Assembly: GCA_015233675.1 (NCBI GenBank)
Contig: JADFXH010000002.1
Location: forward strand, 142,794-206,793
Origin: Candidatus Omnitrophota bacterium
Lineage (GTDB): Bacteria; Omnitrophota; Gorgyraeia; Zapsychrales; Fredricksoniimonadaceae
DNA: 64,000 nucleotides
Direction of reading: 5' to 3'
The translations under genes and the position numbers were made by a program. Below, piece after piece: positions 27,101 through 60,303 of this stretch (the stretch's first letter is position 1; each line of letters starts with the position of its first letter). Under the pieces are notes generated by a model. That model ran no database searches, was not told the DNA's origin, and saw nothing but the letters and a program-made list of their open reading frames with translations.

Positions 27101-27209
27101 TTTTACGGGTGTTGAGGGGATTATCCTTAGGATCGTCCCCATTGAAAGCCCCTTGCCGCTTTTGGGGCTGGCAATATCACCTGCGGAGAATAAATTGGCA
27201 AAGGTATAA
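21147..27209 (+). CDS. Giant (2020 aa) signal-peptide protein with a conserved N-terminal domain, a URO-D-like domain, an AroE-like domain and a GGIDLN C-terminal tail
   Basis: AAGGAG RBS. Signal MFKKTLSLIVIICFFLTSLTPLSKAQA. nt ~24550-25470 reads like uroporphyrinogen decarboxylase/MtaA-type (ADAIVFLDPRPTVMLSPEQFGEYS...GAHPC...FGNMDSIQTLPQGTPQEVQKEA). nt ~25890-26810 reads like shikimate dehydrogenase (LTQPVKVAAVD, TGAVNTAAI, VGRSTDGEG, VLGLGGFGRAAV, LIDATGVGM). Confidence 0.8.
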   Translation: MFKKTLSLIVIICFFLTSLTPLSKAQADSVLGLPTPWTMVNLSPAYMPVMIKGVKVHTDNPLLFDFILDTGKSGLKIDSAEFKTESQKLIKYFLAALTIKEDDLWVNLSPYEKDRMIPQELGQTEMGRDMLAQDYILKQLTASLIYPEKELGKKFWDNVYTKARQMYGATNIPVNTFNKVWIVADKAKVLERNNTAYVVGSHLKVMLEEDYLALEKYQGQLTQLPSEAALNVKASQGTNRSPSNTLASQIVKEIILPELEKEVNQGQNFATLRQMFYSMILASWYKLELKESLLNQVYSNKGKTSGVLSDDPAVKEKIYQQYLQAYKKGVFNYIKEDLDTVSQQPMPRKYFSGGLAKNLGIKDAMEVERGRPTAGDDFSVGGDMAMATVQVAKSKVEKTAERFLSPTLSFLEARNIISKSLEKIVSAGKMPAQLENELLQFIALKPESPELKQFVLEVFVDAFHQYYGFEHKGKNFPEAQFVYGFVHSLNSAIIGIETLGMAQSAWVRLKNSKNRRTNYYVPWTSVSSELVRTTIKSCKRFQVLKEQFRQFAGELPKGTQTFSFRNFRIPRMIEGHTDPLFLREAGEEWIKHWFMLNKQMGDKEAEEMTMILLNGGSIEIVEEEGSRNTAAGFKLNFKIKIADAAMMVNATDDTQNITIRGEGDRTLGTFKVADYKTALATVESNLGSTKIVSISKTVKMEFYPIMLVLADDISEPIKEIIKVLFGGKGMSLTTVDKYFGIYHTNILNSPSNLTKLALDIRRQLEEYKADIPSAAMKASEAAAGQSSEEVLVSKNFFIESWKGVETNRYRRAYDLIWRDTDSPRTSPFAGRVYIDRSGENASKISLDLNGENYAAEVSRNMQLISGEDALYFLRDAAVAKRSQVLLNPNGRRLAEFMRDKMVYGKAPIVSFSAPLSIGSASWGIFNAGVGIGFDWIDMGRGAKEQVFNMKGQGIGGYENLWTPSESVQAISYDPVAQTVKVTLKGSYRDKFVIGSFKERVPRAVEYDAKNPKEGRLESFLAEISEITSGHIKIEIAGNDTVSKIDAAMKSENGAAINFQTPEAKQQYEARQKVLTQMAKNREFMPILGFAGIKLYNDATGYNVTVEEAATNSDIQSDIQAWAQKEYGARTIPMMMDLTYEFEAAILSNLSLEQKDILRKSGKLQVINGKETIIPFHELTRPQLDLKLAEAGIDWHNLKPFDPKAGRLSVPAQTIANFKQKMELGAPKVALVISPFTLTGFLMGDENASLGAMGDEEYQEQFNTVFEYSKKFIKDYIHFLIREGTADAIVFLDPRPTVMLSPEQFGEYSVKAINELSAYAHSLGVLTGAHPCRPMNKEVAQRYLPQMAKYNVDILSVDNIFSLPDVYDYIQQNSPYQTKPVIFGNMDSIQTLPQGTPQEVQKEAREIFQNMGHRPFVFCSSCDIERITGENMKFLGIAAHEGANTKPPRIMTEEETEASVDHLDRLIDDHINRLINPHIPSSSPQVSVAIWVDRRITDADGFSLAETFGRSPTYLINPERLNRDKFMDDIARAIQLNDPETNKDWQDLRDQVWLDGKLELAVRDVPWIQETNIHVTDIYNSNSRFVVGLGNVRGSLSYQGFYVNGYSNPELKSAQAILNKHGVNMFPIPVQMGEDNVQDIPRMLKAILKDEQIVRIALTQPVKVAAVDTGLFKDWDPDTLPTGAVNTAAIEGKGSKRHFVGRSTDGEGTVAMIQDELVKLDKQLGGSTVAVLGLGGFGRAAVGKMLTAPNPPAKILIADIWEVNDTQKSVEAIIAAYRQKYGKDPQTTFEVFKISDVDSQASAADHPFKNADVLIDATGVGMKDEKMALQNLQFIHPGMLVTHAAYRDGVGNYRVAPILEETKKRGAVIRTGIADWVGHQWLQVLEDLKRLEGLTPQSPDWNAPRWEAVGRELREAAESWAKEKGFSDAAIDQAMKHQSSMEILEQRALGGIDLNAKNMGLDVSRDGKGIEMKFDPAMVAEFRKGNFTGVEGIILRIVPIESPLPLLGLAISPAENKLAKV

Positions 27210-27424: not shown

Positions 27425-29935
27425 ATGACAGTCGATTTGCATAGGGCAAATAGAAAAAATGTATTTCACTATTGTTTTCGTTCTTTGTTTTTTCTTTTAA
27501 TTCTTTCAAATTCTCCTGTCTTTGCCCAGAGCACAAACAATAACCCATGGGTTAAAATTGCAAATGGCCATTTATGGGTGTTATCTTCCGATAATGTGAC
27601 GTATACGCCTTATTTCATTAAAGCAGTAGGTTATCAGCCTACACCAATAGGCCGCTATCCCAGTGATTGGGGATACGCCACAACAGATCTTCATAAATAC
27701 ACAGGTATGAATAACAACATTTATGATGATCCTGTCATTTTAAACCGTGACTTTAAGTTATTGCAAACAATGAATGCCAATACCATCCGTATTTGGAGCG
27801 GGGCTAAATCAATTGTAAGCTGTCAGTGTACCAATAATGGACGTGACACAGGCTATATAACCAACGCCGCCACTACCGCTAATACAGACAAAACCCAAAA
27901 TACCCTGGATCTCGCCGCTAAATATGGATTGAAAGTCATTGCCGGTTTTTGGGTCAACCCTTTGACTTTTGATGCTAGTAACAATATAGGGAGCATAGAC
28001 GATAATGGCAATCCTCTAACCGGGCAGGATATTATTAAAAATTTCGTCAATTATGTTAATACTTACAAAGGGAACAGCGCCATATTGTTCTGGGCAATTG
28101 GCAATGAAAATAACTATCAGCTGATTGGTCAGGGGCCTGTTTTATTAACGACATTTGAAAGTATTAGTTCGCATGGTGCTGCCATTTATGCTTGGTTACA
28201 GCAAAATAATTATTTGGACTTTGATGGGAATGTACTTGCTGATGTAAATTCAACGGCTTTTCAAGGTGCTTTAAATGCAGAATTAATTTCTATTAATGAC
28301 TCAACAGACTACAGCACTATTTTGAATATTTTAATTACAGCCCATGGTACAAATTTGACCCCGCAGCAACTATCTGCGTGGTATGCCCTGGTTAATGCTA
28401 TGGCAAAAGCCGCGCATCTCGCGGAAGATCCTGCATACAATACAGGGGGAAAGAATTATCATCCGGTAGCCATAATCAACGGTGAGATTGCAGAAATAGG
28501 TAATTCTACCGATGGAGCTGCGGATTTTCAATTGCCGGATTTGGATATCTGGGGAGTCAATGCGTACCGGGGACAAAGTTTTGGTACTTTTTTCAGTGAT
28601 TATGCAATCAAATCCCAAAAACCACTGTGGATTTCTGAGTTTGGAGTGGATGCTTTTGTCACATCGAATATACCTGCAAACATTGCTGGCATTAATGATT
28701 GGACGGTGACTAATCCTGCTATAATTGCCGGGCAGGGCCAAGAAGACCAAACTGTCCAGTCCAGTTGGGATACGGCTTTATGGAATGAAATTTTTGCTAA
28801 TTCCAATGTGACCATTGGCGGATCATTGATGGAATATTCTGATGAATGGTGGAAGCCTTATGAATTTTATTGCGGGAACAATTCCTCCTCGTGCGATAGT
28901 ACACAAAATCATTTTGGTTCTCCCTATTCCGTTTTTCCTGATCATTATATGAACCAGGAATGGTTTGGGATCATGGCGATTAGTTCAAATCAGACCTCCA
29001 GTAGTCCTCTTCAATGGGGGCCTGATACCATGACCCCTCGTTTGGTTTATACAAATCTTCAGGCGCTATGGGCCCTGCCATCGACACCGACAGGTCTAAC
29101 GGCAACGCCTCTTAATGCCCAGGTGGAATTGGTGTGGAATGCCAGTCCAGGAGCTGCATCATACAATGTCAAAAGAGCCAGTGTCAGCGGTGGGCCGTAT
29201 ACAACTATTATTAATTGGATATATCCGACCTTTGCTGATCTTCCGTTGAATAATGGCACCACGTATTATTATGTTATTTCAGCGGTCAATGCCAATGGTG
29301 AAAGCAGTAATTCCGCGCAAGTCAGCGCAACGCCTGTGCTTCCATTGTCACCCTCAATACCTACAGGTCTTAACGCAACAGCGGGTAGCGGCAAGGTGGT
29401 GTTATCGTGGAGTGCCAGTACCGGAGGAGCTACAGGGTATTATGTAAAAAGGGCAACAACTAATGGCGGGCCGTATACACCGATCGTTGGTTTAGGCCTT
29501 ACAACCCTTACTGATAATAAGGTGACCAATGGCATAACTTATTATTATGTTGTATCAGCGGTCAATAGTAGCGGGAATGGAAGCGTTGAGAGCAACAATT
29601 CCGCACAGGTCAGTGCAACACCCATAGCGCCCCATTCCGCGCCGGTGCAAGCAACGCCTATAGATCTGCCGGCCACCCCGGTTGGACTCAAAGCAATAGG
29701 GGGTATTGCCCGGGTGACATTGTTCTGGAAACCGGTCTTTAGGGCGGCATCATATAAGGTTATGAGATTAGAAAAAGGAAGCCTATTCTATACTTTCTGT
29801 CAAATTGTACCGGGTCCTTATTTATTGGACACTTCTGTTGTGAATGGTACTACGTATTTTTATAAAGTTGAAGCGGTAAACGCTTCTGGACAGAGCGCAT
29901 ATTCTGAACCGGTGTCGGCAAAGCCTACGCCTTAA
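27425..29935 (+). CDS. Secreted clan GH-A-type glycoside hydrolase with three C-terminal fibronectin type III domains
   Basis: Signal peptide. FWAIGNENNY (acid/base-like NE) and PLWISEFGVDAF (nucleophile-like E). Paralogous to 1-2621. Three FN3-like modules (P.GL.A......V.L.W....GA..Y.VKRA...GGPYT......NG.TYYYV.SAVN..GES). Confidence 0.8.
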   Translation: MTVDLHRANRKNVFHYCFRSLFFLLILSNSPVFAQSTNNNPWVKIANGHLWVLSSDNVTYTPYFIKAVGYQPTPIGRYPSDWGYATTDLHKYTGMNNNIYDDPVILNRDFKLLQTMNANTIRIWSGAKSIVSCQCTNNGRDTGYITNAATTANTDKTQNTLDLAAKYGLKVIAGFWVNPLTFDASNNIGSIDDNGNPLTGQDIIKNFVNYVNTYKGNSAILFWAIGNENNYQLIGQGPVLLTTFESISSHGAAIYAWLQQNNYLDFDGNVLADVNSTAFQGALNAELISINDSTDYSTILNILITAHGTNLTPQQLSAWYALVNAMAKAAHLAEDPAYNTGGKNYHPVAIINGEIAEIGNSTDGAADFQLPDLDIWGVNAYRGQSFGTFFSDYAIKSQKPLWISEFGVDAFVTSNIPANIAGINDWTVTNPAIIAGQGQEDQTVQSSWDTALWNEIFANSNVTIGGSLMEYSDEWWKPYEFYCGNNSSSCDSTQNHFGSPYSVFPDHYMNQEWFGIMAISSNQTSSSPLQWGPDTMTPRLVYTNLQALWALPSTPTGLTATPLNAQVELVWNASPGAASYNVKRASVSGGPYTTIINWIYPTFADLPLNNGTTYYYVISAVNANGESSNSAQVSATPVLPLSPSIPTGLNATAGSGKVVLSWSASTGGATGYYVKRATTNGGPYTPIVGLGLTTLTDNKVTNGITYYYVVSAVNSSGNGSVESNNSAQVSATPIAPHSAPVQATPIDLPATPVGLKAIGGIARVTLFWKPVFRAASYKVMRLEKGSLFYTFCQIVPGPYLLDTSVVNGTTYFYKVEAVNASGQSAYSEPVSAKPTP

Positions 29936-47589: not shown

Positions 47590-47679
47590 ATGTTGGCCAT
47601 CTATTGGATCGGCGGTGTTATTTCATTAGTTTTGTTCGTTTACCTTTTAATAGCTTTGCTTAAACCGGAGATATTTTAA
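47590..47679 (+). CDS. kdpF: K+-transporting ATPase subunit F
   Basis: MLAIYWIGGVISLVLFVYLLIALLKPEIF (29 aa) has the KdpF hallmark YL..ALL.PE.F. AGGAGG RBS. The stop overlaps the kdpA ATG (TAATG). Confidence 0.8.
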   Translation: MLAIYWIGGVISLVLFVYLLIALLKPEIF

Positions 47680-49424
47680 TGGGCCTCAATGATTTTATCC
47701 AAACCATCTTTTTCCTTATAGTAGTGCTTCTGATGGTCAAGCCGTTTGGCAGTTACATGGCGTGTATATATATGGGAAGACCTGCGGGCCTTAACGTGTG
47801 GCTGGTTTGTGTAGAAAAATGGATTTACCGGATTTGCGCTGTGAAAGAGGAAGAAGGTATGACTTGGAAAACTTATGCTGTGGCCATGATTTTGTTTAAT
47901 ATTTTAGGTGTTTTAGTGGTCTATGCCATCCAGCGGTTACAAGCTGTGCTGCCTTTAAATCCAATGGCCATGCCAGCGGTTTCCCCGGATTCGTCGTTTA
48001 ATACGGCGGTGAGTTTTACAACTAATACCAACTGGCAAAGTTATGGCGGGGAAAACACCATGAGTTATTTTACTCAAATGCTGGCCTTGAGCGTCCAGAA
48101 TTTTGTTTCTGCGGCAACAGGGATGGCAATTTTGGTCGCCTTAATTAGAGGATTTATTCAAAAGCAGATGAACACTATTGGAAATTTTTGGGTGGATATG
48201 GTGAGGACTGTTCTGTATATCTTGCTGCCTTTGTCAATTGTGTTTGCCGTTGTTTTTGTTTCCCAAGGGATACCGCAGACTTTTAACAAAAGTGCCGTGG
48301 CAACACTCCTGCAAGCCACTAAAGATAGTAATGGAAAATTAGTTAATCAACAAGAGCTTGCTCTAGGGCCGGTGGCGTCCCAGATAGCTATTAAACAAAT
48401 AGGCAGTAACGGTGGAGGATTTTATAATGCTAATTCTGCTCATCCCTACGAAAATCCAACCCCTTTGTCCAATTTTCTAGAATTATTAGCCATTATGTTG
48501 ATTCCCGTGTCATTGTGCTACACCTTTGGGTGCATGGTCAAAGATCGTCGGCAAGGATGGGCCTTGTTAGCCGCGATGTCTATAATTTTTCTTCCTTGCC
48601 TGTGGTTTTGTATACAGATTGAGCAGCAAGGCAATCCTCTGTTTGATAAATTAGGCGTCGACCAAACAACAACAGCTTTCCAATCCGGCGGGAATATGGA
48701 GGGTAAAGAGTCTCGATTTGGGACTGCTAATTCAGCTATTTGGGCGGTTAGTACAACAGCCGTAGCTAATGGATCGGTCAATTGTATGCACGATTCTTTC
48801 ATGCCTTTGTCCGGCATGATCCCTTTGTGGCTTATACAGTTGGGAGAAGTTATTTTTGGCGGAGTGGGCTGCGGGTTGTATGGCATGATCGCTTTTGTGA
48901 TCGTGGCTGTTTTTATTGCAGGTCTTATGATCGGCCGCACACCTGAGTACCTAGGTAAGAAGATCGAGGTTTTTGAAATGAAGATGGCCTCATTAGTCGC
49001 CTTAATACCGCATATGTTTATTTTGATACCAACGGCCATTGCTGTCCTAACAGTTGTGGGAAAAGCCGGAATCTCTAATCCCGGGCCGCATGGATTTAGT
49101 GAGGTGCTTTATGCTTTTAGTTCAGCTGCGGGGAATAATGGGAGTGCTTTTGGCGGGATTAATGCGAACACAGTTTTTTATAATGTCATGACGGCGGTTT
49201 CAATGTTTTTTGGCCGTTATTGGCTGGCGATCCCGATGCTAGCTATTGCCGGATCTTTGTCAGCCAAGAAAATTGTGCCCAGCACCCAAGGGACATTGCC
49301 GACGCACACACCGTTATTTATTGTCTTTTTGGCCATGGTCGTTTTGGTTGTTGGGGCGTTGGTGTTTTTTCCTGCTCTGGCTTTAGGCCCCATTGTTGAA
49401 CATTTGATGTTAAGAGGTGCGTGA
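47679..49424 (+). CDS. kdpA: K+-transporting ATPase subunit A
   Basis: 581 aa, polytopic, with selectivity-filter-like NTNWQSYGGE, GSNGGGF and a TNGS-type repeat, in the kdpFABC context. Confidence 0.95.
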   Translation: MGLNDFIQTIFFLIVVLLMVKPFGSYMACIYMGRPAGLNVWLVCVEKWIYRICAVKEEEGMTWKTYAVAMILFNILGVLVVYAIQRLQAVLPLNPMAMPAVSPDSSFNTAVSFTTNTNWQSYGGENTMSYFTQMLALSVQNFVSAATGMAILVALIRGFIQKQMNTIGNFWVDMVRTVLYILLPLSIVFAVVFVSQGIPQTFNKSAVATLLQATKDSNGKLVNQQELALGPVASQIAIKQIGSNGGGFYNANSAHPYENPTPLSNFLELLAIMLIPVSLCYTFGCMVKDRRQGWALLAAMSIIFLPCLWFCIQIEQQGNPLFDKLGVDQTTTAFQSGGNMEGKESRFGTANSAIWAVSTTAVANGSVNCMHDSFMPLSGMIPLWLIQLGEVIFGGVGCGLYGMIAFVIVAVFIAGLMIGRTPEYLGKKIEVFEMKMASLVALIPHMFILIPTAIAVLTVVGKAGISNPGPHGFSEVLYAFSSAAGNNGSAFGGINANTVFYNVMTAVSMFFGRYWLAIPMLAIAGSLSAKKIVPSTQGTLPTHTPLFIVFLAMVVLVVGALVFFPALALGPIVEHLMLRGA

Positions 49425-49427
49425 CAA

Positions 49428-49505
49428 TGTGTCATTGCGAGCAAAGCGAAGCAATCTTTTAAAAGAGACTGCTTCGTCGCTGAAAAATGTTCCTCGCAAT
49501 GACAC
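49428..49505. repeat. 78-bp imperfect palindromic repeat (tgtgtcattgcgag...ctcgcaatgacac) between kdpA and kdpB
   Basis: The termini are exact reverse complements. The inner arms (agcgaagcaatctttt / aaaagagactgcttcgtcgct) pair with indels. Confidence 0.8.
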
Positions 49506-49523
49506 GAAACTAATGAGGATATT

Positions 49524-51602
49524 ATGAAAAAGACACACAGTAGCATGACATCATTATTCGAGCCGACGATTTTAGTGCCGGCTATGGTGGAATCATTTAA
49601 GAAATTAGACCCCCGGCATCAGTTCAAGAATCCTGTGATGTTTGTGGTATTAGTTGGTAGCTTGCTGACTACGGGCTTATATGTACAGGCATTAGGGTGG
49701 CACGGGGAGGCCGGTGCCAGTTTTATTCTAGCTATCTCTTTATGGCTGTGGTTTACCATCGTTTTTGCCAATTTTGCGGAAAGCATGGCCGAAGGCCGGG
49801 GCAAAGCCCAAGCAGAGAGTTTGCGCCGTGCCCGTAAAGATACGCCGGCTAAAAAAATGTCTAAACCCACACAGGGTGCAAGTTTTGAAACTGTTTCAGC
49901 CACTACTTTGATCAAAGGGGATGTTGTCTTGGTTGAACGCGGGGATTATATCCCCATGGATGGCGAAGTTGTTGAAGGAGTGGCTTCCGTCGATGAAAGT
50001 GCCATTACCGGGGAAAGCGCTCCGGTTATCCGTGAAAGCGGTGGGGACCGTTCGGCCGTGACCGGAGGGACTCGCGTTCTTTCCGATTGGCTGATTGTCC
50101 GTATTACCGCCAATCAGGGAGAAACTTTTTTGGACCATATGATCGCGATGGTTGAGGGTGCCCGTCGTCAAAAGACTCCCAATGAAATCGCTCTGAGTAT
50201 TTTGCTGGTAGTTTTTACGATTATTTTTCTTCTAGTCACAGTGACCATTTTGCCATTTTCGATTTTTAGCGTTGCTACTGCTGGAAAAGGAGCGGTCATT
50301 ACTGTGACGGCTTTAGTTGCATTGCTGGTTTGTTTGATTCCAACCACGATCGGTGGATTATTACCGGCCATTGGCATTGCCGGCATGGATCGCATGATCC
50401 AGGCTAACGTTATCGCAACCTCCGGACGTGCTGTTGAGGCCGCGGGAGACGTAGATGTATTGTTACTGGATAAAACAGGGACTATTACACTCGGCAACAG
50501 GCAAGCGGTGGCTTTTATTCCGACTCAGGGAGTAACTACCGAGAGATTGGCCGATGCCGCTCAATTGTCTTCTTTGTCCGATGAAACGCCTGAAGGCCGC
50601 AGCATCGTCATTTTAGCGAAAGAGAAATACGGTATTAGAGAACGGCAAACCCAGGAACTGGGGGCAAGGTTCATTCCTTTTACTGCTCAAACCCGTATGA
50701 GCGGGGTCGATTTAGGTGCTAACCGCCAAATTAGAAAGGGTGCGGTTGAAGCTATTGAGGGCTATGTGAGAAAGGCCGGCGGGATTTTTCCGGATGATTT
50801 GAAATCATCCATAGAGACCATTTCTAAAAGTGGGGGAACTCCTTTGGTTGTGGCGGAAGATAAAAATGTTCTGGGGGTCATCCAATTAAAGGACATTGTT
50901 AAGGGCGGCATTAAAGAACGTTTCGCGGAACTTCGCCGCATGGGCATTAAGACTATTATGATCACCGGAGACAACCCTTTAACAGCCGCGGCCATTGCTG
51001 TGGAAGCAGGCATGGATGATTTTCTGGCCCAAGCCACACCTGAAACTAAATTAAAATTGATCCGTGATATGCAAACCGGCGGCCGTTTGGTGGCCATGAC
51101 CGGCGACGGGACCAATGATGCGCCGGCTTTGGCCCAAGCGGATGTGGCATTGGCCATGAATACGGGAACACAAGCTGCCAAAGAAGCGGGGAACATGGTG
51201 GATTTGGATTCCAATCCCACTAAGCTGATTGAAGTGGTTAAAATCGGTAAACAACTCTTGATTACGCGAGGGTCTCTGACGACCTTTAGCATTGCTAATG
51301 ATGTTTCTAAATATTTCGCGATTATACCGGCGGCATTTGTAGGGACTTATCCGGCATTGGGGGCACTCAATGTTATGCATTTAGCTACACCGCAAAGTGC
51401 GATATTGTCCGCGGTTATTTTTAACGCGCTGATTATAATATTTCTTATCCCTTTATCTTTGTTTGGGGTGCCTTACAGGCCGGTTGCTGCCAGTCGTCTT
51501 TTACGGGATAATTTGCTGATTTATGGGGCTGGAGGAATCATCACTCCGTTTGTAGGGATTAAATTGATCGACATGATTTTAGTAGCATTGCATTTAGTTT
51601 AA
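49524..51602 (+). CDS. kdpB: K+-transporting ATPase subunit B (P-type ATPase)
   Basis: [17 protein letters not shown] and [15 protein letters not shown], with KdpB length and context. Confidence 0.95.
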
Positions 51603-51605
51603 TAT

Positions 51606-51671
51606 GTCGTCCTGAGCGAAGCGAAGGATCTTAAGGAGCCTTTAGATTCTTCGGCTTCGCCTAAGAATGAC
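51606..51671. repeat. 66-bp imperfect palindromic repeat (gtcgtcctgagcgaagcgaaggatct ... agattcttcggcttcgcctaagaatgac) between kdpB and kdpC
   Basis: By eye, most positions of the two arms are complementary. Confidence 0.7.
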
Positions 51672-51698
51672 AGCAATATCTGATGTGGAGGATCTACC

Positions 51699-52277
51699 AT
51701 GTTACGTACACAAATTAGACCGGCTATAGTTTCTTTTATTGTGTTAACGGTGATCACCGGGATACTTTATCCGCTTTTAGTGACCGCCATCGCGCAAACC
51801 GTATTCCATCATCAGGCCGAAGGTAGTTTGATAGTCTCCGGGGATGGTAAAATTTTAGGATCATCTTTGATCGGGCAGAATTTTGATGACCCTAAGTATT
51901 TCTGGGGCAGGATTTCAGCGACGAGTCCTGCTTATAATGCTTCTTCTTCCTCTGGATCCAATTTAGGCCCTTCAAATCCTGCATTACTAGATGAAATTAA
52001 AGCGAGGGTATCAGCTCTAAAAGCAGCAGATCCTGACAACAATGTTCTCATTCCTGTGGATTTAGTGACATCTTCAGGAAGCGGATTAGACCCTCACATC
52101 AGTCAAGCCGCTGCGGAATATCAACTGGCGCGTGTGGCCCGCGTGAGGGGTTTAACACAAGAAACGGTTAATCAAATTGTCGATCAAAACACCCAAGGCC
52201 GCTTCTTAGGATTTCTCGGTGAACCGGTGGTGAATGTATTGCAAGTTAACCTGGCGCTTGATGAACATAAAAACTAA
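51699..52277 (+). CDS. kdpC: K+-transporting ATPase subunit C
   Basis: An N-terminal TM, then [27 protein letters not shown] and [10 protein letters not shown], both typical of KdpC. Confidence 0.95.
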
Positions 52278-52357
52278 ATATTCCCTGTTTCTTGCTTGGC
52301 TGACCGGGAGTTCAAAAAATGCTCGCAATGACCCTCGTAGCGAGTATGATATAATGC

Positions 52358-55000
52358 ATGGAACGACCTGATCCGGATGCAGTTCTAGCTAGAGTAAAAG
52401 CTGAAGAAAGCCATCGTGGCAAACTGAAGATTTTCTTCGGCATGTGTCCTGGTGTCGGTAAGACCTATGCCATGCTTCAAGAGGCGCGCCAGCGCCAGAC
52501 TGAAGGGTTTCGGGTGTTGGTTGGTGTCGTCTGCACGCATGGCCGTTCTGAAACCCAAGCCCTGCTTGAAGGATTGGAACAGGTCCCTCCCAAAATTGTC
52601 AATTACCGCGGTATTACCTTAGAGGAAATGGATATCGATGAAATCCTTAAGCGCCGCCCTCAATTAGTTTTAGTCGACGAGCTTGCTCATACCAATGCCC
52701 CGGGAAGCCGTCATCCTAAACGTTATCAGGATGTCCTGGAAATACTTTCAGCTGACATCGATGTTTTTACCACCCTTAATGTGCAGCATGTTGACAGCCG
52801 CCGGGAAGATATTCTGGCCGTTACCCGTGTTGTGGTTGGAGAAACTGTCCCTGATACCATCCTTGATGAGGCCTCTGAAATTACTTTAGTGGATTTATCT
52901 CCGCAAGCCCTGCATCAACGATTGGCTGAAGGCAAGGTGTATGTCCCCTCCCAAGCCCAAGCTGCCGCCGCTAATTTTTTTAAAACCGAAAATTTGACAG
53001 CCTTGCGGGAAATGGCTTTACGATTAACCACAGCCCATGTTAACCGGAATCTGCGTTCGTTGATGTTAGCAAAAGGGCTTTCAGGCCCCACTAAAAGCGG
53101 TGAACGCATTCTGGTTGCGGTTGGGGTCACTCCATTTTCCGAGTCCTTGATTCGTATGACCCGCCGCTGGGCAGGGATGCTGGATGCTTCATGGATTGCC
53201 TTGCATGTGGAAGGCTCCGCGCCACTCTCTGAAGAGCATAAAGAGCTTTTGATGAAGAATTTGGCCTTGGCCCGTCAGTTAGGAGCCGAGACCATCCATC
53301 AAGTGGGAGATGACCTTGCTCAAGTGATCATTGATGTGGCAAATAAAGAAAATGTCACACAAATTATTATAGGGAAGTCTGTCGAGAAGAAATGGGAAAG
53401 ATTGTTGAGAATTCCCACCATGGTGGATCGGCTAGTTAATTTAAGCGGACAGATTGACGTGCACATGGTGCGCATGTCATCGGGTGAGAAGAGTTTCCCT
53501 CTAAGACCAAGATATTTTTTATCCAGAATAAAACCCCGTGAATATGGTCTTAGTTTTTTCATGTTTGCAATTGCCACCATCGTGAACATGCTCCTGGAGC
53601 CCCTGGCGGGTTATCAGATGCTTGGGCTAATGTATTTACTGACCGTTGTTTTAAGCGGTGCTTTTTTAGGCAGGTCTGCCGCCTTCATGCTGGCGGCTTT
53701 AAGCGCCTTGGCCTGGGATTTCTTGTTTATCCCTCCGAAATATACTTTTAGTTTTAGAAGCGGTTACGACTTGGGTCTGCTGGTGATGTTTTTTATTACA
53801 GCTTTGATGATGGGGTTCATTACTTCCAAGCTGCGGCGTCAGAAAGAAATCGAACAGAAACAGCGTTTGCGTTCAGAATCTTTGTATGAATTAACGCGGG
53901 CCTTGGCTGTAAGTACGGATATAGCTCAAGCAATGCGGGTGGCTTGCGCCCAGATTAATTTACTTTTGCATTCTAAAAGCTGTGTGCTGATGATCGATGA
54001 AAATGATCAACCCCTTTTTATGAATCCCATAGGGGATACTATAGAGATGACGGATAACCAGAAAGGTTTGGTCCAATGGGTGGTAGCTAATAAAAAAGCC
54101 GCGGGCCGTTTTAGTGATACATTGCCTCAACAGCCATTGATGTATTTGCCATTAAGGGCTTCGGGGCAGGTGAGGGCTGTCTTGACCATTAAACTTTTAA
54201 TCGATAAGCCTTTGGATTTGGCCCAAAGGACACTATTAGAATCTTTTACGGCCCTTATGACGGTGATGTTGGAAAAGGATCAATTATTGAAAATATCACG
54301 CGAAGCCAAAATGAAAGAAGATACGCAAAATTTGCAAAGTGCGTTGCTTGATAATCTATCGCATGAATTAAAGACCCCGCTTACGATCATTTCCGGTTAT
54401 CTGGATGCATTGGTTTTATTTCACCAGTGGCCTAAAGATGCTATGGATCTTTTGGAAGAATGCCGTTTAGCCTGCCTGCGTCTGACCAGCGGGGTTGATG
54501 CGGTTTTGGATTTGACTAAATTGGATACCGGTAATTTAAGGCCCAATTTTGCCTGGTGTGAAGTCAAAGATATCATCGCTCAGGCCCTCAAACAAGTCGT
54601 GTCTCAGCCGGTTGAAGAGCGCATTCATCTGGACTGTCCTTCCGGACCTTTGTATGTAAATGCGGATTTTTATATGGTCACACAGTCTTTGAAAAACATT
54701 GTTCATAATGCCTTGGTGCATGGCCCTGAGGGCGAGGAGATCGATATTCATGTGCGCATTATGGATCAAAAGATCAGGATCAGTGTTATTGATCAGGGAG
54801 AAGGAATCCCCAAAGAGACCCTGGCCAAAATTTTTGATAAGTTTTATAGAGGAGCAAAAACCAAAAAAGGGGGGTTAGGCTTAGGTTTATCTATCGCCCG
54901 TCGTTTTGTGCAATTGAATGAAGGTGATGTAGAAGCAGAAAATTTGTCTCCTAAGGGGTTTATGGTTACTATAACCTTACCAATGGCAGAAAAAGAATAA
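52358..55000 (+). CDS. kdpD: Sensor histidine kinase KdpD
   Basis: N-terminal KdpD domain (GMCPGVGKTYAML, VDELAHTN), a Usp-like domain, 4 TM, a GAF-like region, an H-box (LSHELKTPL) and an HATPase domain (DQGEGIP...GGLGLGLSIA). Confidence 0.95.
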   Translation: MERPDPDAVLARVKAEESHRGKLKIFFGMCPGVGKTYAMLQEARQRQTEGFRVLVGVVCTHGRSETQALLEGLEQVPPKIVNYRGITLEEMDIDEILKRRPQLVLVDELAHTNAPGSRHPKRYQDVLEILSADIDVFTTLNVQHVDSRREDILAVTRVVVGETVPDTILDEASEITLVDLSPQALHQRLAEGKVYVPSQAQAAAANFFKTENLTALREMALRLTTAHVNRNLRSLMLAKGLSGPTKSGERILVAVGVTPFSESLIRMTRRWAGMLDASWIALHVEGSAPLSEEHKELLMKNLALARQLGAETIHQVGDDLAQVIIDVANKENVTQIIIGKSVEKKWERLLRIPTMVDRLVNLSGQIDVHMVRMSSGEKSFPLRPRYFLSRIKPREYGLSFFMFAIATIVNMLLEPLAGYQMLGLMYLLTVVLSGAFLGRSAAFMLAALSALAWDFLFIPPKYTFSFRSGYDLGLLVMFFITALMMGFITSKLRRQKEIEQKQRLRSESLYELTRALAVSTDIAQAMRVACAQINLLLHSKSCVLMIDENDQPLFMNPIGDTIEMTDNQKGLVQWVVANKKAAGRFSDTLPQQPLMYLPLRASGQVRAVLTIKLLIDKPLDLAQRTLLESFTALMTVMLEKDQLLKISREAKMKEDTQNLQSALLDNLSHELKTPLTIISGYLDALVLFHQWPKDAMDLLEECRLACLRLTSGVDAVLDLTKLDTGNLRPNFAWCEVKDIIAQALKQVVSQPVEERIHLDCPSGPLYVNADFYMVTQSLKNIVHNALVHGPEGEEIDIHVRIMDQKIRISVIDQGEGIPKETLAKIFDKFYRGAKTKKGGLGLGLSIARRFVQLNEGDVEAENLSPKGFMVTITLPMAEKE

Positions 55001-55001
55001 G

Positions 55002-55688
55002 ATGTCCAAGGGGATTGTTCTTGTCATAGACGATGAGCCTCAGATCCAAAAGATGCTGGGGGTTATTCTCACGCATGCTGGTTATGAAGTGATCAGTGCT
55101 GACAGCGGTGAAAAAGGCTTGGCAGCGCTTGTTTATAAAAAACCTCAAGCCGTGCTTCTGGATATGGGCCTGCCGGACATGGAAGGCTTTGATGTGCTTT
55201 TGCGTATCAGGGAGTTTAGCGACGTTTCCGTCATTATGGTCTCAGTCCGGGGGCAGGAAGAAATAAAGGTCCAATGCCTAGAAAGTGGGGCAGATGATTA
55301 TATTACCAAGCCGTTTTCCGCTTCCGAACTGACAGCAAGACTTTCAGCGGTGTTAAGGCGAAAGACGACGCCCGGAATTGTTAATGAAACTTTTGAAAAT
55401 GCCAGGCTGCGCGTTGAGTTTAATAATCGTCAAGTGACACTGGATGGACAACTTCTTAAGTTGACATCTATTGAATACGGGTTATTATCGTCGCTGATTA
55501 AAAACGCAGGGCGGGTTTTAACGATACGCCAAATTCTAAGGGAAGTCTGGGGAACAGAGAACGAAGAGAAAGCTAACTCAGTGCGGGTTTATTTAAATCA
55601 TCTGCGCCAAAAGATCGAGGACAACCCCTCAACCCCGAAGCGGATTATCAATGAACCCGGAATAGGCTACAGGTTTAATTTGCTTTAA
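55002..55688 (+). CDS. kdpE: OmpR-family response regulator KdpE
   Basis: Receiver domain (VIDDEP...LDMGLPDMEG...KPF) plus a winged-helix output domain (LTSIEYGLLSSL...GIGYRF). Confidence 0.9.
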   Translation: MSKGIVLVIDDEPQIQKMLGVILTHAGYEVISADSGEKGLAALVYKKPQAVLLDMGLPDMEGFDVLLRIREFSDVSVIMVSVRGQEEIKVQCLESGADDYITKPFSASELTARLSAVLRRKTTPGIVNETFENARLRVEFNNRQVTLDGQLLKLTSIEYGLLSSLIKNAGRVLTIRQILREVWGTENEEKANSVRVYLNHLRQKIEDNPSTPKRIINEPGIGYRFNLL

Positions 55689-56010: not shown

Positions 56011-57021
56011 ATGATATTTTTCTTAATCTTGATGCTCGTGGGGATTATTAATCCTGTATTTGCTCAACCTTCGGATTCTTCCTTGAAAGCCACCACCGTT
56101 GCCATACCTGGTGGTGAGGGAGGGATTGGTTTTGATGATATGACTTTTTCTTCCAGTCTGCATAAAGTTTTGGTGCCTGCAGGACATACGGGCAAATTAT
56201 ATTTAATTGACCCTGTCACTTACGCCATGACATCTATAGGAGGATTTAGCTCAAGCGCTGCCAACCAAAAAGGGCATGATATTGGAATTACGTCTGCGGA
56301 TGAGGGGGAAGGTTATTTATTCGTTTTAGACCATGGCAGGCATGAGTTGGCTGTGGTTGACCCTAAGTCGTCGAATCAGGTTGGCGCTGCACCTCTCGCG
56401 GGTGATTCAGATTATGTGCGTTACGTCGGAGTCAATCATGAGCTTTGGGTCACGGAACCGCATAATAAACAGCTTGAGATCTTCAGGTTCTCCGCCGGAG
56501 CACATCCGGCGCTGAAACCTGTAGCGCTCATTTCTGTGTCTGGTGGGCCGGAGTCCTTGGTGGTCGATCATATTTTAGGACGCGCCTATACGAATTTGGG
56601 GCCCCAGGCCGCGGCCATCGACCTGCGGTCGCATGTTATTGTCAGCGTATGGGCTAATGAATGCGAAAAATCACGCGGGAATGCCATAGATGAGCAAAAA
56701 GGTTTTTTATTTGTCAGTTGCGCTGAAGGCAAGGCTTTGGTTTTTGATTTAAAACAGAATAATAAAAAAATAAGTGAATTAATGACCGATCCTGGCGCTG
56801 ATATGATAAGTTATAATCCAAAACTTTCTCATTTATATTTCACCAGCGGAAAAAATGCCACCCTTTCAGTTTTAGGGGTATCAGCTCAGGGCAAGATTTC
56901 ATTATTGGGCAAAGCTCAAGCAGATAAAAGGGCTCATTGTGTAGTGGGCGATGATCAAAATAATATTTGGGTCTGTGACCCGCCGGGAGGCCGGTTATTA
57001 CGGTATAAAGATGCATTTTAA
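56011..57021 (+). CDS. Secreted beta-propeller repeat protein (YncE/YVTN-like)
   Basis: GGAGG RBS and a signal peptide. Recurrent blade-like motifs (LYLIDP, LFVLDHGRHELAVVDP, LWVTEPHNKQLEIF, LFVSCAEGKALVFD, LYFTSGKNATLSVL, IWVCDPPGGRLLRY). Confidence 0.5.
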   Translation: MIFFLILMLVGIINPVFAQPSDSSLKATTVAIPGGEGGIGFDDMTFSSSLHKVLVPAGHTGKLYLIDPVTYAMTSIGGFSSSAANQKGHDIGITSADEGEGYLFVLDHGRHELAVVDPKSSNQVGAAPLAGDSDYVRYVGVNHELWVTEPHNKQLEIFRFSAGAHPALKPVALISVSGGPESLVVDHILGRAYTNLGPQAAAIDLRSHVIVSVWANECEKSRGNAIDEQKGFLFVSCAEGKALVFDLKQNNKKISELMTDPGADMISYNPKLSHLYFTSGKNATLSVLGVSAQGKISLLGKAQADKRAHCVVGDDQNNIWVCDPPGGRLLRYKDAF

Positions 57022-57949
57022 ACCCTATAAATCTAATCGACCATCGCGTGATAGTTTTCGTTTGGCGCCTGCACGCCGGGTGGATGAAGCTGAAAGAAAA
57101 TTTATCGCCGGTACGCCAGTGGACCCTTCCCCGCGCATTCTTTTGGAAGACGGCAGCCGGGAATTGACGATGCGGGCCATGGACATGATTTGTCCCATAG
57201 GCATGGGGCAGCGGGGACTCATTGTCGCCCCTCCTGGATCTGGCAAAACTACTTTCTTGAAGCATATTTGTCAGGCCGTTGCTAAAGGAACTCCTCAAAT
57301 AAAACTATATTGCCTGCTTATTGATGAGCGGCCTGAAGAGGTGACAGAATTCAAGAGGACTATTCCCGGTGAGGTTCACTATTCTTCTACAGATCAAAGC
57401 TATGAGCATCATATCGAAATTGCAGATAAATTAATGCGTCAGGCCTTTGTGGAAGTAGCGGCAGGAGCGAACGTGATGATCGTTATCGATTCGTTGACCC
57501 GGCTTGCGCGTGTGCATAATGCGCAGACGCGCTCCAGCGGCCGTACGATTTCCGGCGGGGTCGATGCCCGCGCTCTTGAGGTTCCTCGCCGCATTTTTGG
57601 CGCTGCGCGCAAGATTGAGAATGGCGGGTCGCTCTCTATTTTAGCCACGATTTTGATTGAAACAGGAAGCCGTATGGATGAAGTCATTTTTGAGGAATTT
57701 AAGGGCACAGGTAATATGGAGGTTGTCCTCTCAAGAGAGATTGCCAATCACCGCATTTTCCCGGCCATTGATATTTCAAAAAGCGCCACCCGCAAGCAAG
57801 AATTGTTGCTGGGTGCTAATGAGCTTCAACAAATAAACAAGTTGAGGCGTGCTTTGGCCGCATTTGGCCCTGTTGAGGCTGCTGAGACATTGGTCAAAAA
57901 ACTCCAGCAATTCCCCACCAATAAAGAACTACTCGCCCAATTTAGCTAA
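57011..57949 (+). CDS. Rho-type ATPase lacking the N-terminal RNA-binding domain (Rho C-terminal domain only, ~312 aa)
   Basis: PIGMGQRGLIVAPPGSGKTT (Walker A), LLIDERPEEV (Walker B), SLTRLARVHN (Q-loop region), GGVDARALEVPRRIFGAAR (R-loop region), EEFKGTGNME and FPAIDISKSATRKQELL. Only about 60 residues precede the PIGMGQRG segment (about 45 before PRILLEDG), even from the earliest in-frame ATG (56951 gives 332 aa). The start overlaps the upstream gene by 11 nt. Confidence 0.8.
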   Translation: MHFKPYKSNRPSRDSFRLAPARRVDEAERKFIAGTPVDPSPRILLEDGSRELTMRAMDMICPIGMGQRGLIVAPPGSGKTTFLKHICQAVAKGTPQIKLYCLLIDERPEEVTEFKRTIPGEVHYSSTDQSYEHHIEIADKLMRQAFVEVAAGANVMIVIDSLTRLARVHNAQTRSSGRTISGGVDARALEVPRRIFGAARKIENGGSLSILATILIETGSRMDEVIFEEFKGTGNMEVVLSREIANHRIFPAIDISKSATRKQELLLGANELQQINKLRRALAAFGPVEAAETLVKKLQQFPTNKELLAQFS

Positions 57950-58040: not shown

Positions 58041-59945
58041 ATGGCCTTTATCAGTTTGCAGGAAATATCCGTGGCCTTCGGCGGCCCGCTTTTGTTTGAC
58101 AAATTAAGCCTTCAGGTGGAACCAGGTGAGCGCATTGCTTTACTTGGCCGCAACGGGGTCGGTAAAACTACCTTGATGAAGGTAATGGCGGGTCAGGTTT
58201 CTATCGACGAGGGTGAGATTGTTTATCAAAAGGGGGTTCAGGTGACTCATCTGCCCCAGGAAGTCCCTAATGACATCAAAGGCAATGTTTTTGATATCGT
58301 GTTCGTGGGGCTAGGGCCCCGCGCTAAACTTTTGAGCGATTATCATCATGTGGCCCAGCGTCTGCATACCGAACACACCCCTGAATTGATGCGCCAGCTG
58401 GATATTTTACAAACGGAGTTAGACCATAGCGGGGGATGGGATATCAATGCCGAAGTTGAATTTGTGCTTTCGCAGATGAAACTCGATGGTGAAGCGGATT
58501 TTGAACAGTTATCCGGCGGTCAAAAACGCCGTGTGCTTTTAGCCCGTGCCCTGGTCCTCAAGCCTGAAGTCTTACTTTTGGATGAGCCTACCAATCATTT
58601 GGATATTGACTCGATTAACTGGTTGGAAGAATTTTTAAAGGATTATCCCTGCACTTTGTTTTTTGTCACACATGACCGCATGTTTATGCAGCATTTAGCG
58701 ACAAGGATCGTAGAGCTTGACCGCGGTAAAATTTTTAGCTGGTCTTGTGATTACCCGACTTTTTTAGAGCGCAAAAGTATGGCCCTGGAAAACGAGGCCG
58801 CCCAGCGTAAAGATTTTGATAATAAATTAGCTGAAGAAGAAATTTGGATTCGCAAAGGTGTCAAGGCCCGACGGACACGTAATGAAGGTAGGGTCAAGGC
58901 GTTGGAGCGTTTGCGCATAGAAAAGCAGGCCCAGCGTGAGCAAATCGGTCAGGTACGAATGAAAGCCCATGAGTCCGAGGCATCCGGGCATTTAGTTATC
59001 AAAGCCGCGCATTTGGGGTTTAGCTATGGAGATAAGTGTTTGATCAAAGATTTTTCTACTCAAATTATGCGTGGTGACAAGATCGGAGTCATCGGTCCCA
59101 ATGGTTGCGGCAAGACCACCTTATTGCGAATTTTGTTGGGTCAACTTGGAGTCCAGAAAGGCAAAGTGCGTTTTGGCACCAACCTGGAAATCGCCTATTA
59201 TGACCAATTGCGTCAGCAATTGGATGAAGAAAAAACTGTTATAGAAAATGTTTGTCCGGGTGGGGATACGGTGACGATCAATGGCAAGCCCCGGCATATC
59301 ATCGGTTATTTGCAGGATTTTTTGTTTACCCCGGACCGGTCGCGCACGCCGGTCAAAGTCCTCTCGGGGGGGGAACGCAACCGTTTATTTTTAGCCCGTC
59401 TTTTTACCAAACCATCTAATTTTTTGGTGATGGATGAGCCAACAAATGATCTGGATATTGAGACCCAGGAACTATTGGAAGAGTTATTGATGGAGTATTC
59501 CGGAACTTTACTTTTAGTCAGCCATGACCGTTCATTTTTAAATAATGTGGTGACTTCAACAATGATCATGGAAGGACAAGGAGAGATCAGCGAATTCGCT
59601 GGCGGATATGATGATTGGGTCAATCAGCGTCAGCCTAAGGCGCTTGTACCCCGCAAGCCGCAGATCACATCTATTAAGGAGACGCCAAAACCTTTGAAGC
59701 CGTTGATTTTAAGAAAACTTTCTTTTAAGGAAGAGCGTGAGCTCGAAGGCCTTCCGGTAAAGATTGAAAAGCTTGAGGTAGAACAAGAGGATATTTTTAC
59801 TTTGCTTGCGGATATTAATTTTTATCAAAGAGCTCCCGAGGAGATCCAGCGCGTGAACTCCCGTTTGGAGGCGTTAGCGGAAGAACTTCTAAAAGCTTAT
59901 CAACGCTGGGAATATCTGGAAGCTTCGAAAAAAGAAAACGATTAA
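58041..59945 (+). CDS. uup: ABC-F family ATPase (Uup-like)
   Basis: Two ABC cassettes (GRNGVGKTT...LSGGQKRRVLLARAL...LLLDEPTNHLD; GPNGCGKTT...LSGGERNRLFLARLF...LVMDEPTNDLD), no TM domain and a C-terminal coiled coil. Confidence 0.85.
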   Translation: MAFISLQEISVAFGGPLLFDKLSLQVEPGERIALLGRNGVGKTTLMKVMAGQVSIDEGEIVYQKGVQVTHLPQEVPNDIKGNVFDIVFVGLGPRAKLLSDYHHVAQRLHTEHTPELMRQLDILQTELDHSGGWDINAEVEFVLSQMKLDGEADFEQLSGGQKRRVLLARALVLKPEVLLLDEPTNHLDIDSINWLEEFLKDYPCTLFFVTHDRMFMQHLATRIVELDRGKIFSWSCDYPTFLERKSMALENEAAQRKDFDNKLAEEEIWIRKGVKARRTRNEGRVKALERLRIEKQAQREQIGQVRMKAHESEASGHLVIKAAHLGFSYGDKCLIKDFSTQIMRGDKIGVIGPNGCGKTTLLRILLGQLGVQKGKVRFGTNLEIAYYDQLRQQLDEEKTVIENVCPGGDTVTINGKPRHIIGYLQDFLFTPDRSRTPVKVLSGGERNRLFLARLFTKPSNFLVMDEPTNDLDIETQELLEELLMEYSGTLLLVSHDRSFLNNVVTSTMIMEGQGEISEFAGGYDDWVNQRQPKALVPRKPQITSIKETPKPLKPLILRKLSFKEERELEGLPVKIEKLEVEQEDIFTLLADINFYQRAPEEIQRVNSRLEALAEELLKAYQRWEYLEASKKEND

Positions 59946-60102: not shown

Positions 60103-60303
60103 ATGGTTAAAGGTAAAGTAAAATGGTTCAACGACCAAAAAGGTTTTGGATTTATTACTCCTGAAAACGGCAAAGACGTGTTTGTGCATCACTCTGCAAT
60201 TCAAGGTGAAGGCTACAGATCATTAGGCGAAGGACAAGATGTTGAGTTCGAAATCGTCAACGGCCCTAAGGGTGAACAAGCTCAAAACGTTGTAAAAATA
60301 TAA
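60103..60303 (+). CDS. cspA: Cold-shock protein (CspA family)
   Basis: [15 protein letters not shown] (RNP1) and VFVHHSAI (RNP2), 66 aa, AAGGAGG RBS. Confidence 0.95.

Follow-up and report, generated by a model that had tools for sequence, protein, structure and literature searches.

A short form of Rho that consists of the ATPase domain alone, in Omnitrophota and other phyla

Loading of Rho onto RNA through the primary binding site in its N-terminal domain is central to all current models of factor-dependent termination. The stretch of DNA considered here, a 64-kb window of the 274-kb Candidatus Omnitrophota contig JADFXH010000002.1, contains a rho gene (57011..57949, + strand; 312 codons and the TAA at 57947-57949) whose product, called short Rho below, is a Rho relative cut down to a connector and a complete ATPase domain. 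The 312-residue protein is identical to MBF0570713.1, which is encoded on this contig and which NCBI lists as 'MAG: transcription termination factor Rho [Candidatus Omnitrophica bacterium]' (MAG, metagenome-assembled genome). A first-pass annotation, made from the DNA letters alone, had described the gene as a Rho paralogue reduced to its motor domain and had quoted a set of Rho motifs, all of which (APPGSGKTT, LLIDERPEEV, RLARVHN, GGVDARAL, EEFKGTGNME and FPAIDISKSATRKQELL) are present in the translation.

The short rho gene and its product

The frame that ends at 57947-57949 is open from an ATG at 56951 as well as from the ATG at 57011. As had been pointed out in the first-pass annotation, the earlier ATG extends the protein by 20 residues only; since no other start lies between it and an in-frame stop upstream, this is the most that could be added at the N-terminus. 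The ATG at 57011 is supported as the true start, because NCBI gives the same 312-residue product and because related proteins begin MRPYNS or MHPYNSNRP. This start lies within the end of the preceding gene (56011..57021, + strand), giving the 11-nt overlap (57011..57021, + strand) that had been noted before, and the overlap suggests that translation of the two genes may be coupled. Scans for promoters, terminators and Rfam families around the short rho gene gave no signal above background.

Searches with domain models show what is left of Rho in this protein. Among the Pfam models, PF00006 alone matches; neither the Rho_N helix bundle (PF07498) nor Rho_RNA_bind (PF07497), the oligonucleotide/oligosaccharide-binding (OB) fold that forms the primary RNA-binding domain, is matched in short Rho, while Rho_N is matched in the canonical controls (P0127 and the full-length Rho of locus L193, which is described below). 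The NCBIfam model PRK09376 (Rho) scores 384 bits against a cut-off of 315, with only model positions 130-412 of 413 aligned, whereas the strict Rho model TIGR00767 gives 360.5 bits, which is below its cut-off of 509.45. It is because the laxer cut-off is passed that the Prokaryotic Genome Annotation Pipeline (PGAP) calls the protein Rho. Rho chains in the PDB likewise align with short Rho only from residue 136-142 onward. Thus, the alignment to Rho families that had been proposed as a check bears out the missing N-terminal domain, with Rho models and structures matching from position 130-142 on. The homologous region does, however, begin earlier in short Rho than the residue of about 45 first given: it starts at about residue 28 of 312 (RKFIAGTP, equivalent to E. 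coli NKILFENLTP). Given that Rho_N and the OB fold are both absent, the canonical primary RNA-binding site is unusable, and the earlier conclusion that this protein cannot bind RNA in the canonical way holds.

In the place where canonical Rho has its N-terminal domain of ~125 residues, short Rho has a basic tail (residues 1-24, MHFKPYKSNRPSRDSFRLAPARRV; 57011..57082, + strand) that is predicted to be disordered by AlphaFold2 (AF2). This is followed by a connector (residues 25-46, DEAERKFIAGTPVDPSPRILLE; 57083..57148, + strand), which is homologous to the linker at ~residues 125-147 of E. coli Rho and is conserved across the short family; AF2 predicts a helix at residues 26-33 that leads into the ATPase domain. 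The AF2 model, which was built on a 55-sequence alignment, has a mean predicted local distance difference test score (pLDDT) of 91.4, with low confidence in the tail (block means of 52-60 for residues 1-20, and values <50 for residues 15-18). In a Foldseek search the model matches the C-terminal domain of E. coli, M. tuberculosis and T. maritima Rho, with query-normalised template modelling (TM) scores of 0.85-0.88; over ~283 columns the superposition has a root-mean-square deviation of 1.2-1.5 Å and an identity of 49%.

Conservation of the motor was scored over 121 short members, using E. coli Rho numbering. The Walker A sequence or P-loop, APPGSGKTT (57227..57253, + strand), contains K79 and T80, which correspond to E. 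coli K184 and T185 and are invariant in 121/121. The motif LLIDERPEEV (57314..57343, + strand) supplies the catalytic glutamate E106 (E. coli E211) and the arginine valve R107 (E. coli R212), and the Walker B sequence VMIVIDS (57476..57493, + strand) supplies D160 (E. coli D265), with R164 (E. coli R269) shortly after it; these residues too are invariant in the family. The arginine finger, R261 (57791..57793, + strand; E. coli R366), is an arginine in 120/121. In all, the residues at E. coli positions K184, T185, D210, E211, R212, D265, S266, R269, G287, G288, T323, S325 and G337 are unchanged in every one of the 121.

The secondary RNA-binding site, which lines the central channel, is likewise retained. 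The Q-loop (residues 173-185, TRSSGRTISGGVD; 57527..57565, + strand) has R178 at the position of E. coli K283 and S181 at that of T286; this arginine and serine are invariant in the short members, whereas canonical Omnitrophota Rho has K, S or T there. The R-loop, ETGSR (residues 217-221; 57659..57673, + strand), ends in R221, which corresponds to E. coli K326 and is invariant in the short members, and canonical Omnitrophota Rho also has arginine at this position. The R/S/R of the short family at positions K283/T286/K326 are therefore conservative replacements. Because the catalytic residues and those of the Q and R loops are kept, both the ATPase motor and the RNA site of the central channel are intact. 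At the position of E. coli V203, a lysine is found in all 121 short members, and at that of V228 a histidine or arginine, where canonical Omnitrophota Rho has I or V. We take V203 and V228 to belong to the pocket for the KOW domain of NusG, although these residue numbers are unconfirmed, and no conclusion is drawn from the substitutions.

The short family and its place among known Rho classes

The window protein is an ordinary member of its family. At least 120 Omnitrophota sequence clusters have the same architecture; the best 120 homologues, whose named sources are Candidatus Omnitrophica, are 75-100% identical to it and 276-358 residues long. The family can be defined by a length of ~290-330 residues, a basic tail, the signature [KR][KRQ]F..G....P....[LI].LE and a full Rho C-terminal domain, all of which are found in the window protein. 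The tails are of low complexity and differ in length, with a median of 27 residues; R, P, S, N, K and H abound in them, and the median net charge is +3. Basic tails occur in every short-Rho subfamily, within a range of 0-45 residues. A typical Omnitrophota tail reads MRPYNSYRPPHQHARPAPSRRxDESEKKF, and after the tail comes the well-conserved connector LAGTPIDPSPRIRLE.GS.ELTMRAMDLICPIGMGQRG.

Three of the database entries that turned up in these searches are irregular. P0122 (295 residues) has a garbled C-terminus that resembles a frameshift, and P0123 (400 residues), which starts within the Rho C-terminal domain, aligns with the query in two separate segments, as might be expected of a partial duplication or a chimeric gene call. 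Locus L007 (CAYNGE010000208.1) is the closest relative by GTDB among the matches listed, with a short Rho that is 88% identical and the same KdpD-KdpE synteny; it is labelled 'uncultured Planctomycetales bacterium', while the window protein and its other named relatives are labelled Omnitrophica, and this is probably a problem of the taxonomic label.

The first-pass annotation had allowed that the gene might be a decaying paralogue, or that a corrected assembly, a frameshift or an adjacent upstream frame might yet reveal the missing N-terminal domain. What speaks for decay or artefact is only the missing domain itself together with the overlap with the upstream gene. Comparison of the window gene with five relatives gives ratios of nonsynonymous to synonymous substitution rates (dN/dS) of 0.05-0.12, and short rho is thus under strong purifying selection; this, together with the motor residues that do not vary among 121 relatives, contradicts the decay reading. 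A hidden N-terminal domain was sought in all six frames with a hidden Markov model (HMM) of the Rho N-terminal domain, which gave E = 2e-45 with a positive-control locus. Matches were absent from the window, from loci L001-L004 and from 765 kb around 80 further short-rho loci in JGI metagenomes, except for weak matches (E ~0.004-0.065) to genes of the CspA type. Moreover, the gene that lies upstream of short rho varies from locus to locus, being a secreted all-beta protein, DUF347, FeoB, KdpE (directly, in L007) or one of many that were seen only once. The HMM result and these differing upstream genes rule out that the domain is concealed by a frameshift or a faulty assembly or lies in an 'exon' next to the gene, and neither a hidden N-terminal-domain frame nor an upstream OB fold of the kind that had been envisaged is encoded in the regions searched. 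Since independent assemblies with the same architecture, closed genomes among them, number in the hundreds and come from several phyla, it is next to inconceivable that the gene is a pseudogene or a product of faulty assembly.

Short Rho resembles canonical Rho (E. coli, Type 1, TIGR00767) in its Walker A and B motifs, catalytic glutamate, arginine valve, arginine finger, Q and R loops and connector, and in the RecA-type C-terminal ATPase domain as a whole (49% identity, TM 0.88). It differs in lacking the whole N-terminal domain (helix bundle and OB fold, ~125 residues), in falling below the TIGR00767 cut-off and in forming a separate clade. The proteins known as 'Rho, short form' (NF041509), Type 4 or Group B are also shortened, are often second copies and have conserved catalytic residues; an example from a survey of Rho proteins is the essential Rho of Fusobacterium nucleatum (PMC11347177). 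These proteins, however, lack only Rho_N and keep the OB fold, whereas the present family lacks the OB fold as well. In keeping with this difference, the window protein scores 321.9 bits and its relatives 289-334 against the NF041509 cut-off of 628, with model positions 1-76 unmatched; the model begins at the OB fold, and with canonical Rho its alignment starts there, at model positions 3-4.

The same survey (PMC11347177, Moreira et al. 2024) uses the term 'Rho-like' for proteins with one Rho domain only, found in 421 species, and sets them aside as non-functional Rho. With the ATPase domain alone of the three Rho domains, the window protein falls under this single-domain definition. In the portion of the survey accessible to us, 'Rho-like' is a bookkeeping class for which neither a family definition, a phylogeny nor a function is given, and Omnitrophota lie outside the data set. 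The alignments and trees presented here show that, at the level of sequence, the ATPase-only proteins of this study are one conserved clade with a basic tail. A precedent for the tail may be found in Type 2 Rho (M. luteus, M. tuberculosis), which likewise has a basic, disordered, low-complexity segment on the RNA-entry face of the ring; there, however, the N-terminal domain is complete and the basic region comes in addition to it, whereas in short Rho the tail replaces the domain. The arginine-rich regions of M. luteus and M. tuberculosis Rho have been found experimentally to raise the affinity for RNA (cited in PMC11347177).

The type III secretion ATPases FliI and SctN and the F1 alpha and beta subunits are homologous RecA-type ring ATPases (PF00006). 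A secretion ATPase was rejected as an identity for the window protein, which scores 49-86 bits against NCBIfam cut-offs of 379-750, and the presence of the Rho-specific Q and R loops identifies it as a Rho. No model specific to the short family was found in Pfam, NCBIfam, PADLOC or PHROG, and a literature search yielded no paper on the family and nothing on Rho in Omnitrophota, for which KEGG Orthology tables record presence only. Because PGAP names these short proteins 'transcription termination factor Rho', genome surveys can miscount the presence, copy number and 'functional' status of Rho.

Canonical Rho, members in other phyla and a proposed mechanism

Omnitrophota possess an ordinary and very conserved Rho in addition to the short form. 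Full-length Rho with a textbook N-terminal domain was found in two Omnitrophota MAGs of a GTDB scan (L032 and L062), and a search with the L062 protein retrieved at least 120 clusters (78-100% identical, 387-477 residues), nearly all of which have the full set of Rho_N, Rho_RNA_bind and ATPase domains; many of the clusters are labelled Candidatus Omnitrophica or Omnitrophota. Some gene calls of this canonical Rho add a basic, low-complexity leader of ~50 residues (L062 5437-5590, MKPQKTERPERPERPKPTRADSNSRYPTHNSRPKQ), whose composition resembles that of the short-Rho tail; NCBI starts the canonical protein (417 residues) after this leader.

The short proteins stand apart from the canonical Omnitrophota Rho. 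Within the C-terminal domain, the short family is 50.5% identical to canonical Omnitrophota Rho and 49.9% identical to canonical Rho of other phyla, whereas canonical Omnitrophota Rho is 68% identical to that of other phyla, and the latter are 65% identical among themselves. In neighbour-joining trees the short forms, including the distant clusters P0124, P0125 and P0210, are monophyletic in 86-87.5% of bootstraps and join canonical Omnitrophota Rho in 0/200; the trees were made by this distance method only, and long-branch attraction is possible. A scan of 1.84 billion cluster representatives returned a handful of short clusters and then canonical or insertion-bearing Rhos at 46-54% identity, with no full-length protein that is specially close to the short family. 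The nearest full-length match, P0271, was dismissed as a special relative, as its Bacillus-like synteny (pyrG, fbaA, tal, rho) marks it as a generic Rho.

The family extends well beyond the Omnitrophota. A tblastn search of plasmids identified a 319-residue member, 62% identical and with a K-rich tail, on plasmid pB of Spartinivicinus ruber, a cultured gammaproteobacterium (L167, NZ_CP048880.1, 11971-12930). A search with this protein retrieved more than 120 clusters (84-100% identical, mostly 314-327 residues), whose named sources include Spartinivicinus poritis, Endozoicomonas elysicola (on a 5.57-Mb chromosome contig), Endozoicomonas sp. SM1973, Halioglobus, Colwellia and Alteromonadaceae, as well as one Lentisphaeria MAG. 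The gammaproteobacterial tail is conserved and K-rich (MTKKxLSLKVKRNKDSKQ...DDPQKRFLNGVAINP). These proteins share 64-66% identity with the window protein, but no more than 45-49% with the canonical Rho of Gammaproteobacteria; between the canonical Rhos of E. coli and Methylophaga the figure is 78%. Judged by sequence similarity, then, the same short family is common in marine Gammaproteobacteria and present in several phyla.

In two gammaproteobacterial loci, L193 and L195, short and canonical rho stand on one contig. The genes trxA (thioredoxin), canonical rho, ubiD, acs (acetyl-CoA synthetase) and short rho (314 residues) follow each other on one strand; in L193 canonical rho occupies 894-2195 and short rho 6001-6945, 3.8 kb apart, and the pair recurs in L195. 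The canonical protein of L193 (433 residues) has all three domains of Rho (Rho_N, Rho_RNA_bind and ATPase) and reaches 703 bits with TIGR00767. Because both are carried on one contig, short Rho is in these bacteria a true paralogue beside a normal Rho. This coexistence fits the survey, which reports no Pseudomonadota species without a functional Rho (PMC11347177). The first-pass term 'paralogue' therefore stands at the level of the family, with its own clade, the separate canonical clade of the Omnitrophota and the gammaproteobacterial pair behind it; for the window's own genome, we infer that short Rho coexists with a canonical Rho.

Coexistence raises the possibility that the short protein acts on canonical Rho rather than beside it, by mixing with it in hetero-hexamers that have fewer primary sites per ring and so tuning or inhibiting termination. 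Such a modulator would in effect be an antiterminator, either built-in or carried by a phage, and could be compared in function with Psu or Rof. Besides the coexistence in L193 and L195, it would account for the copy on plasmid pB, which stands alone beside lysis genes; the residues R212 and R366 of the nucleotide site at the subunit interface are conserved, and hetero-hexamers have been proposed in the survey for species with two Rhos (PMC11347177). However, a pure poison subunit would not need the catalytic glutamate, Walker motifs and Q and R loops that are invariant in ~240 sequences. In addition, the C-terminal domain is 45-51% identical to that of co-resident canonical Rho, as compared with 65-78% among canonical Rhos, and this low identity makes the compatibility of the interfaces uncertain. 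We regard a modulator as possible, though unlikely.

Plasmid pB is in fact a phage-plasmid, with genes for capsid, tail, terminase, holins, Cro/CI and replication protein P, and the same DNA is listed as a viral genome in IMG/VR (UViG_2909979649_000009). The short rho gene lies on it as a lone gene on the opposite strand, beside the holin and lysis genes, a position typical of an accessory 'moron' gene. Together with two gammaproteobacterial genomes in which toxin-antitoxin, insertion sequence (IS) and integrase genes are found near short rho, and with a cross-phylum distribution that suggests horizontal transfer, this could be taken to mean that short Rho is a mobile accessory ATPase of phage-host conflict that might, for instance, shut off foreign transcripts or those of the host in the course of defence or counter-defence. 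Yet searches with PADLOC and PHROG give P-loop noise only, and a single viral contig with a member is found among 2.9 million in IMG/VR, this being the same Spartinivicinus element. The contexts in Omnitrophota are those of housekeeping and stress genes (Kdp, ABC-F, Csp, FeoB), and the other gammaproteobacterial contexts are ordinary. A role in conflict is consequently very improbable.

Taken together, the conserved motor, the separate clade and the coexistence in Gammaproteobacteria argue that short Rho is probably a second ring RNA translocase, which works without a primary RNA-binding site beside the housekeeping Rho. On the strength of residue conservation, it would assemble as a Rho-like hexameric ring that hydrolyses ATP when RNA is held in the channel by the Q and R loops and that translocates 5' to 3'. 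Having no YC-specific primary site, it would do so without the loading at rut sites that is characteristic of canonical Rho. Instead, six basic tails, which would emerge on the entry side of the ring in the usual place of the N-terminal domains, may capture RNA unspecifically, in parallel with the arginine-rich insertions known from the Rho of M. luteus and M. tuberculosis; alternatively, a partner protein would do so. Such a ring, targeted differently from the housekeeping Rho, could serve termination, the removal of R-loops or the remodelling of ribonucleoproteins.

Several points weigh against this proposal. Hexamer formation, RNA-dependent ATPase activity and translocation are for every member deduced from sequence. 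According to work cited in the survey (PMC11347177), removal of the first 27 residues deprives E. coli Rho of RNA binding, and function without a primary site is therefore not trivially expected. Some Omnitrophota members have a tail of only ~9 residues (MRPYNSQNKF...), and the tail consequently cannot be the sole device for RNA capture; a partner protein, or mixing with canonical Rho, may make up for this. Finally, no canonical rho was found in the 64-kb window or in the 765 kb of flanks of related loci, and the accessions sampled for the short form (eight) and for canonical Omnitrophota Rho (20) have no MAG in common.

The last two observations would be explained if canonical rho had been lost in the lineage of the window and the truncated protein carried out general termination without a primary site. 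Absence from the flanks says little, however, because only ~0.4 canonical rho would be expected in a flank sample of this size. Moreover, the short clade never branches from the canonical clade of the Omnitrophota, and the family is shared with Gammaproteobacteria, which retain canonical Rho. It thus seems quite unlikely that short Rho is the sole Rho of its host, and a second translocase beside canonical Rho remains the preferred interpretation. In either case the family is a clean test of Rho without its primary binding site, a natural experiment that bears on what the Rho ring does alone, how it is recruited and whether it interacts with canonical Rho. As cultured hosts exist (Endozoicomonas, Spartinivicinus), the family is directly testable.

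Neighbouring genes

The gene immediately upstream of short rho in the window (56011..57021, + strand) encodes a protein of 336 residues with a signal peptide, which is all-beta and weakly NHL-like. The first-pass annotation had called it a secreted beta-propeller. The signal peptide fits the N-terminus, MIFFLILMLVGIINPVFA/QP, whereas the propeller finds weak matches only (Pfam NHL repeat, E 0.03; NHL region of PDB 6d69, E 0.007); a single-sequence AF2 model is all-beta and poor (pLDDT 45.6). In related genomes, where a check had been proposed, the gene pair is conserved in part: the secreted all-beta gene is the immediate upstream neighbour in 24/60 Omnitrophota loci, but these belong to one sublineage, and the gene is absent in L002, L004, L008 and L007. 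Since L007 is the closest GTDB relative, the pairing is read as synteny and not as function. The order Kdp operon, KdpD/E, all-beta gene, short rho, ABC-F, csp is a lineage-local block. Within it, short Rho is 83-85% identical between the window and its relatives, which is within the range of the neighbouring KdpD, KdpE and ABC-F, while the all-beta protein evolves faster than its neighbours (67-73% identity).

An upstream gene on the same strand as short rho is nevertheless the rule, as it is present in 57/60 loci. In the same 60 loci the junctions are tiny, with a 2-nt spacer in about one-third and overlaps of 1-8 nt in several. The same-strand upstream gene and the tiny junctions indicate that short rho is usually a distal and probably translationally coupled gene of an operon. 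In the window, too, it would occupy the distal position in a small operon and be coupled translationally to the gene upstream, whose secreted all-beta product is an incidental partner.

Downstream of short rho in the window lie genes for an ABC-F (Uup-like) ATPase (58041..59945, + strand) and for a cold-shock-domain protein of the CspA type (60103..60303, + strand), both of which are recurrent neighbours. The ABC-F gene recurs in 18/67 loci and may be only syntenic. A gene for a cold-shock-domain protein is found within 0.3-8 kb and on the same strand in 19/67 loci, in at least five different upstream-gene contexts (L001, L002, L090, L098, L137 and L140, among others, also have it), and the window, L001 and L002 encode the same CspA-type protein (100% identity). 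It is a speculative thought that this protein serves as an RNA-binding partner in trans. The OB fold that is missing from short Rho is cold-shock-domain-like, and the csp genes are the only weak matches of the N-terminal-domain HMM.

In Gammaproteobacteria the short rho copies are stand-alone genes with no constant neighbour. Various small genes related to nucleic acids or to RNA polymerase (RNAP) were seen beside them (L190 9098-9292, L186 9219-9380, L192 3900-4121 and 5049-5585, and L191 7591-7839). They encode a peptide with the RNAP-binding domain of SutA (147 bp downstream), Lys-rich DUF2986 peptides (the latter in two genomes), an 82-residue RNA-recognition motif (RRM) protein (160 bp upstream) and an RNase H (416 bp upstream), none of which is constant. 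These scattered neighbours are leads only. A further, rather unlikely suggestion is that short Rho is a mobile motor without a primary binding site that is targeted in trans by small RNA- or RNAP-binding proteins encoded nearby, or that enters the Rho ring of its host and reprogrammes termination. In the first version, CspA in Omnitrophota and the RRM protein, the SutA-like RNAP binder and DUF2986 in Gammaproteobacteria would be candidates for replacing the lost OB fold; the ring-entry version would explain why a phage-plasmid carries short rho. If either were true, short Rho would constitute a natural 'split' or re-targeted Rho system.

Other features of the window were noted in passing. Directly upstream of the all-beta gene lies a complete block for potassium uptake (KdpA, KdpB, KdpC, KdpD and KdpE; 47679-55688, + strand), which is syntenic with L001, L002 and L007. 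Several large proteins with Ig-like, fibronectin-type-III or SdrD-B domains, which are probably surface proteins, are encoded at 15-2621, 5914-8991 and 27425-29935 (+ strand), and an SMC gene lies at 17045-20545. Omnitrophota are known for very long proteins, and an open reading frame of 2020 residues (21147-27209, + strand) has an odd architecture, its sole Pfam match being a uroporphyrinogen-decarboxylase-like (URO-D) domain in the middle of the protein (residues 1176-1424).

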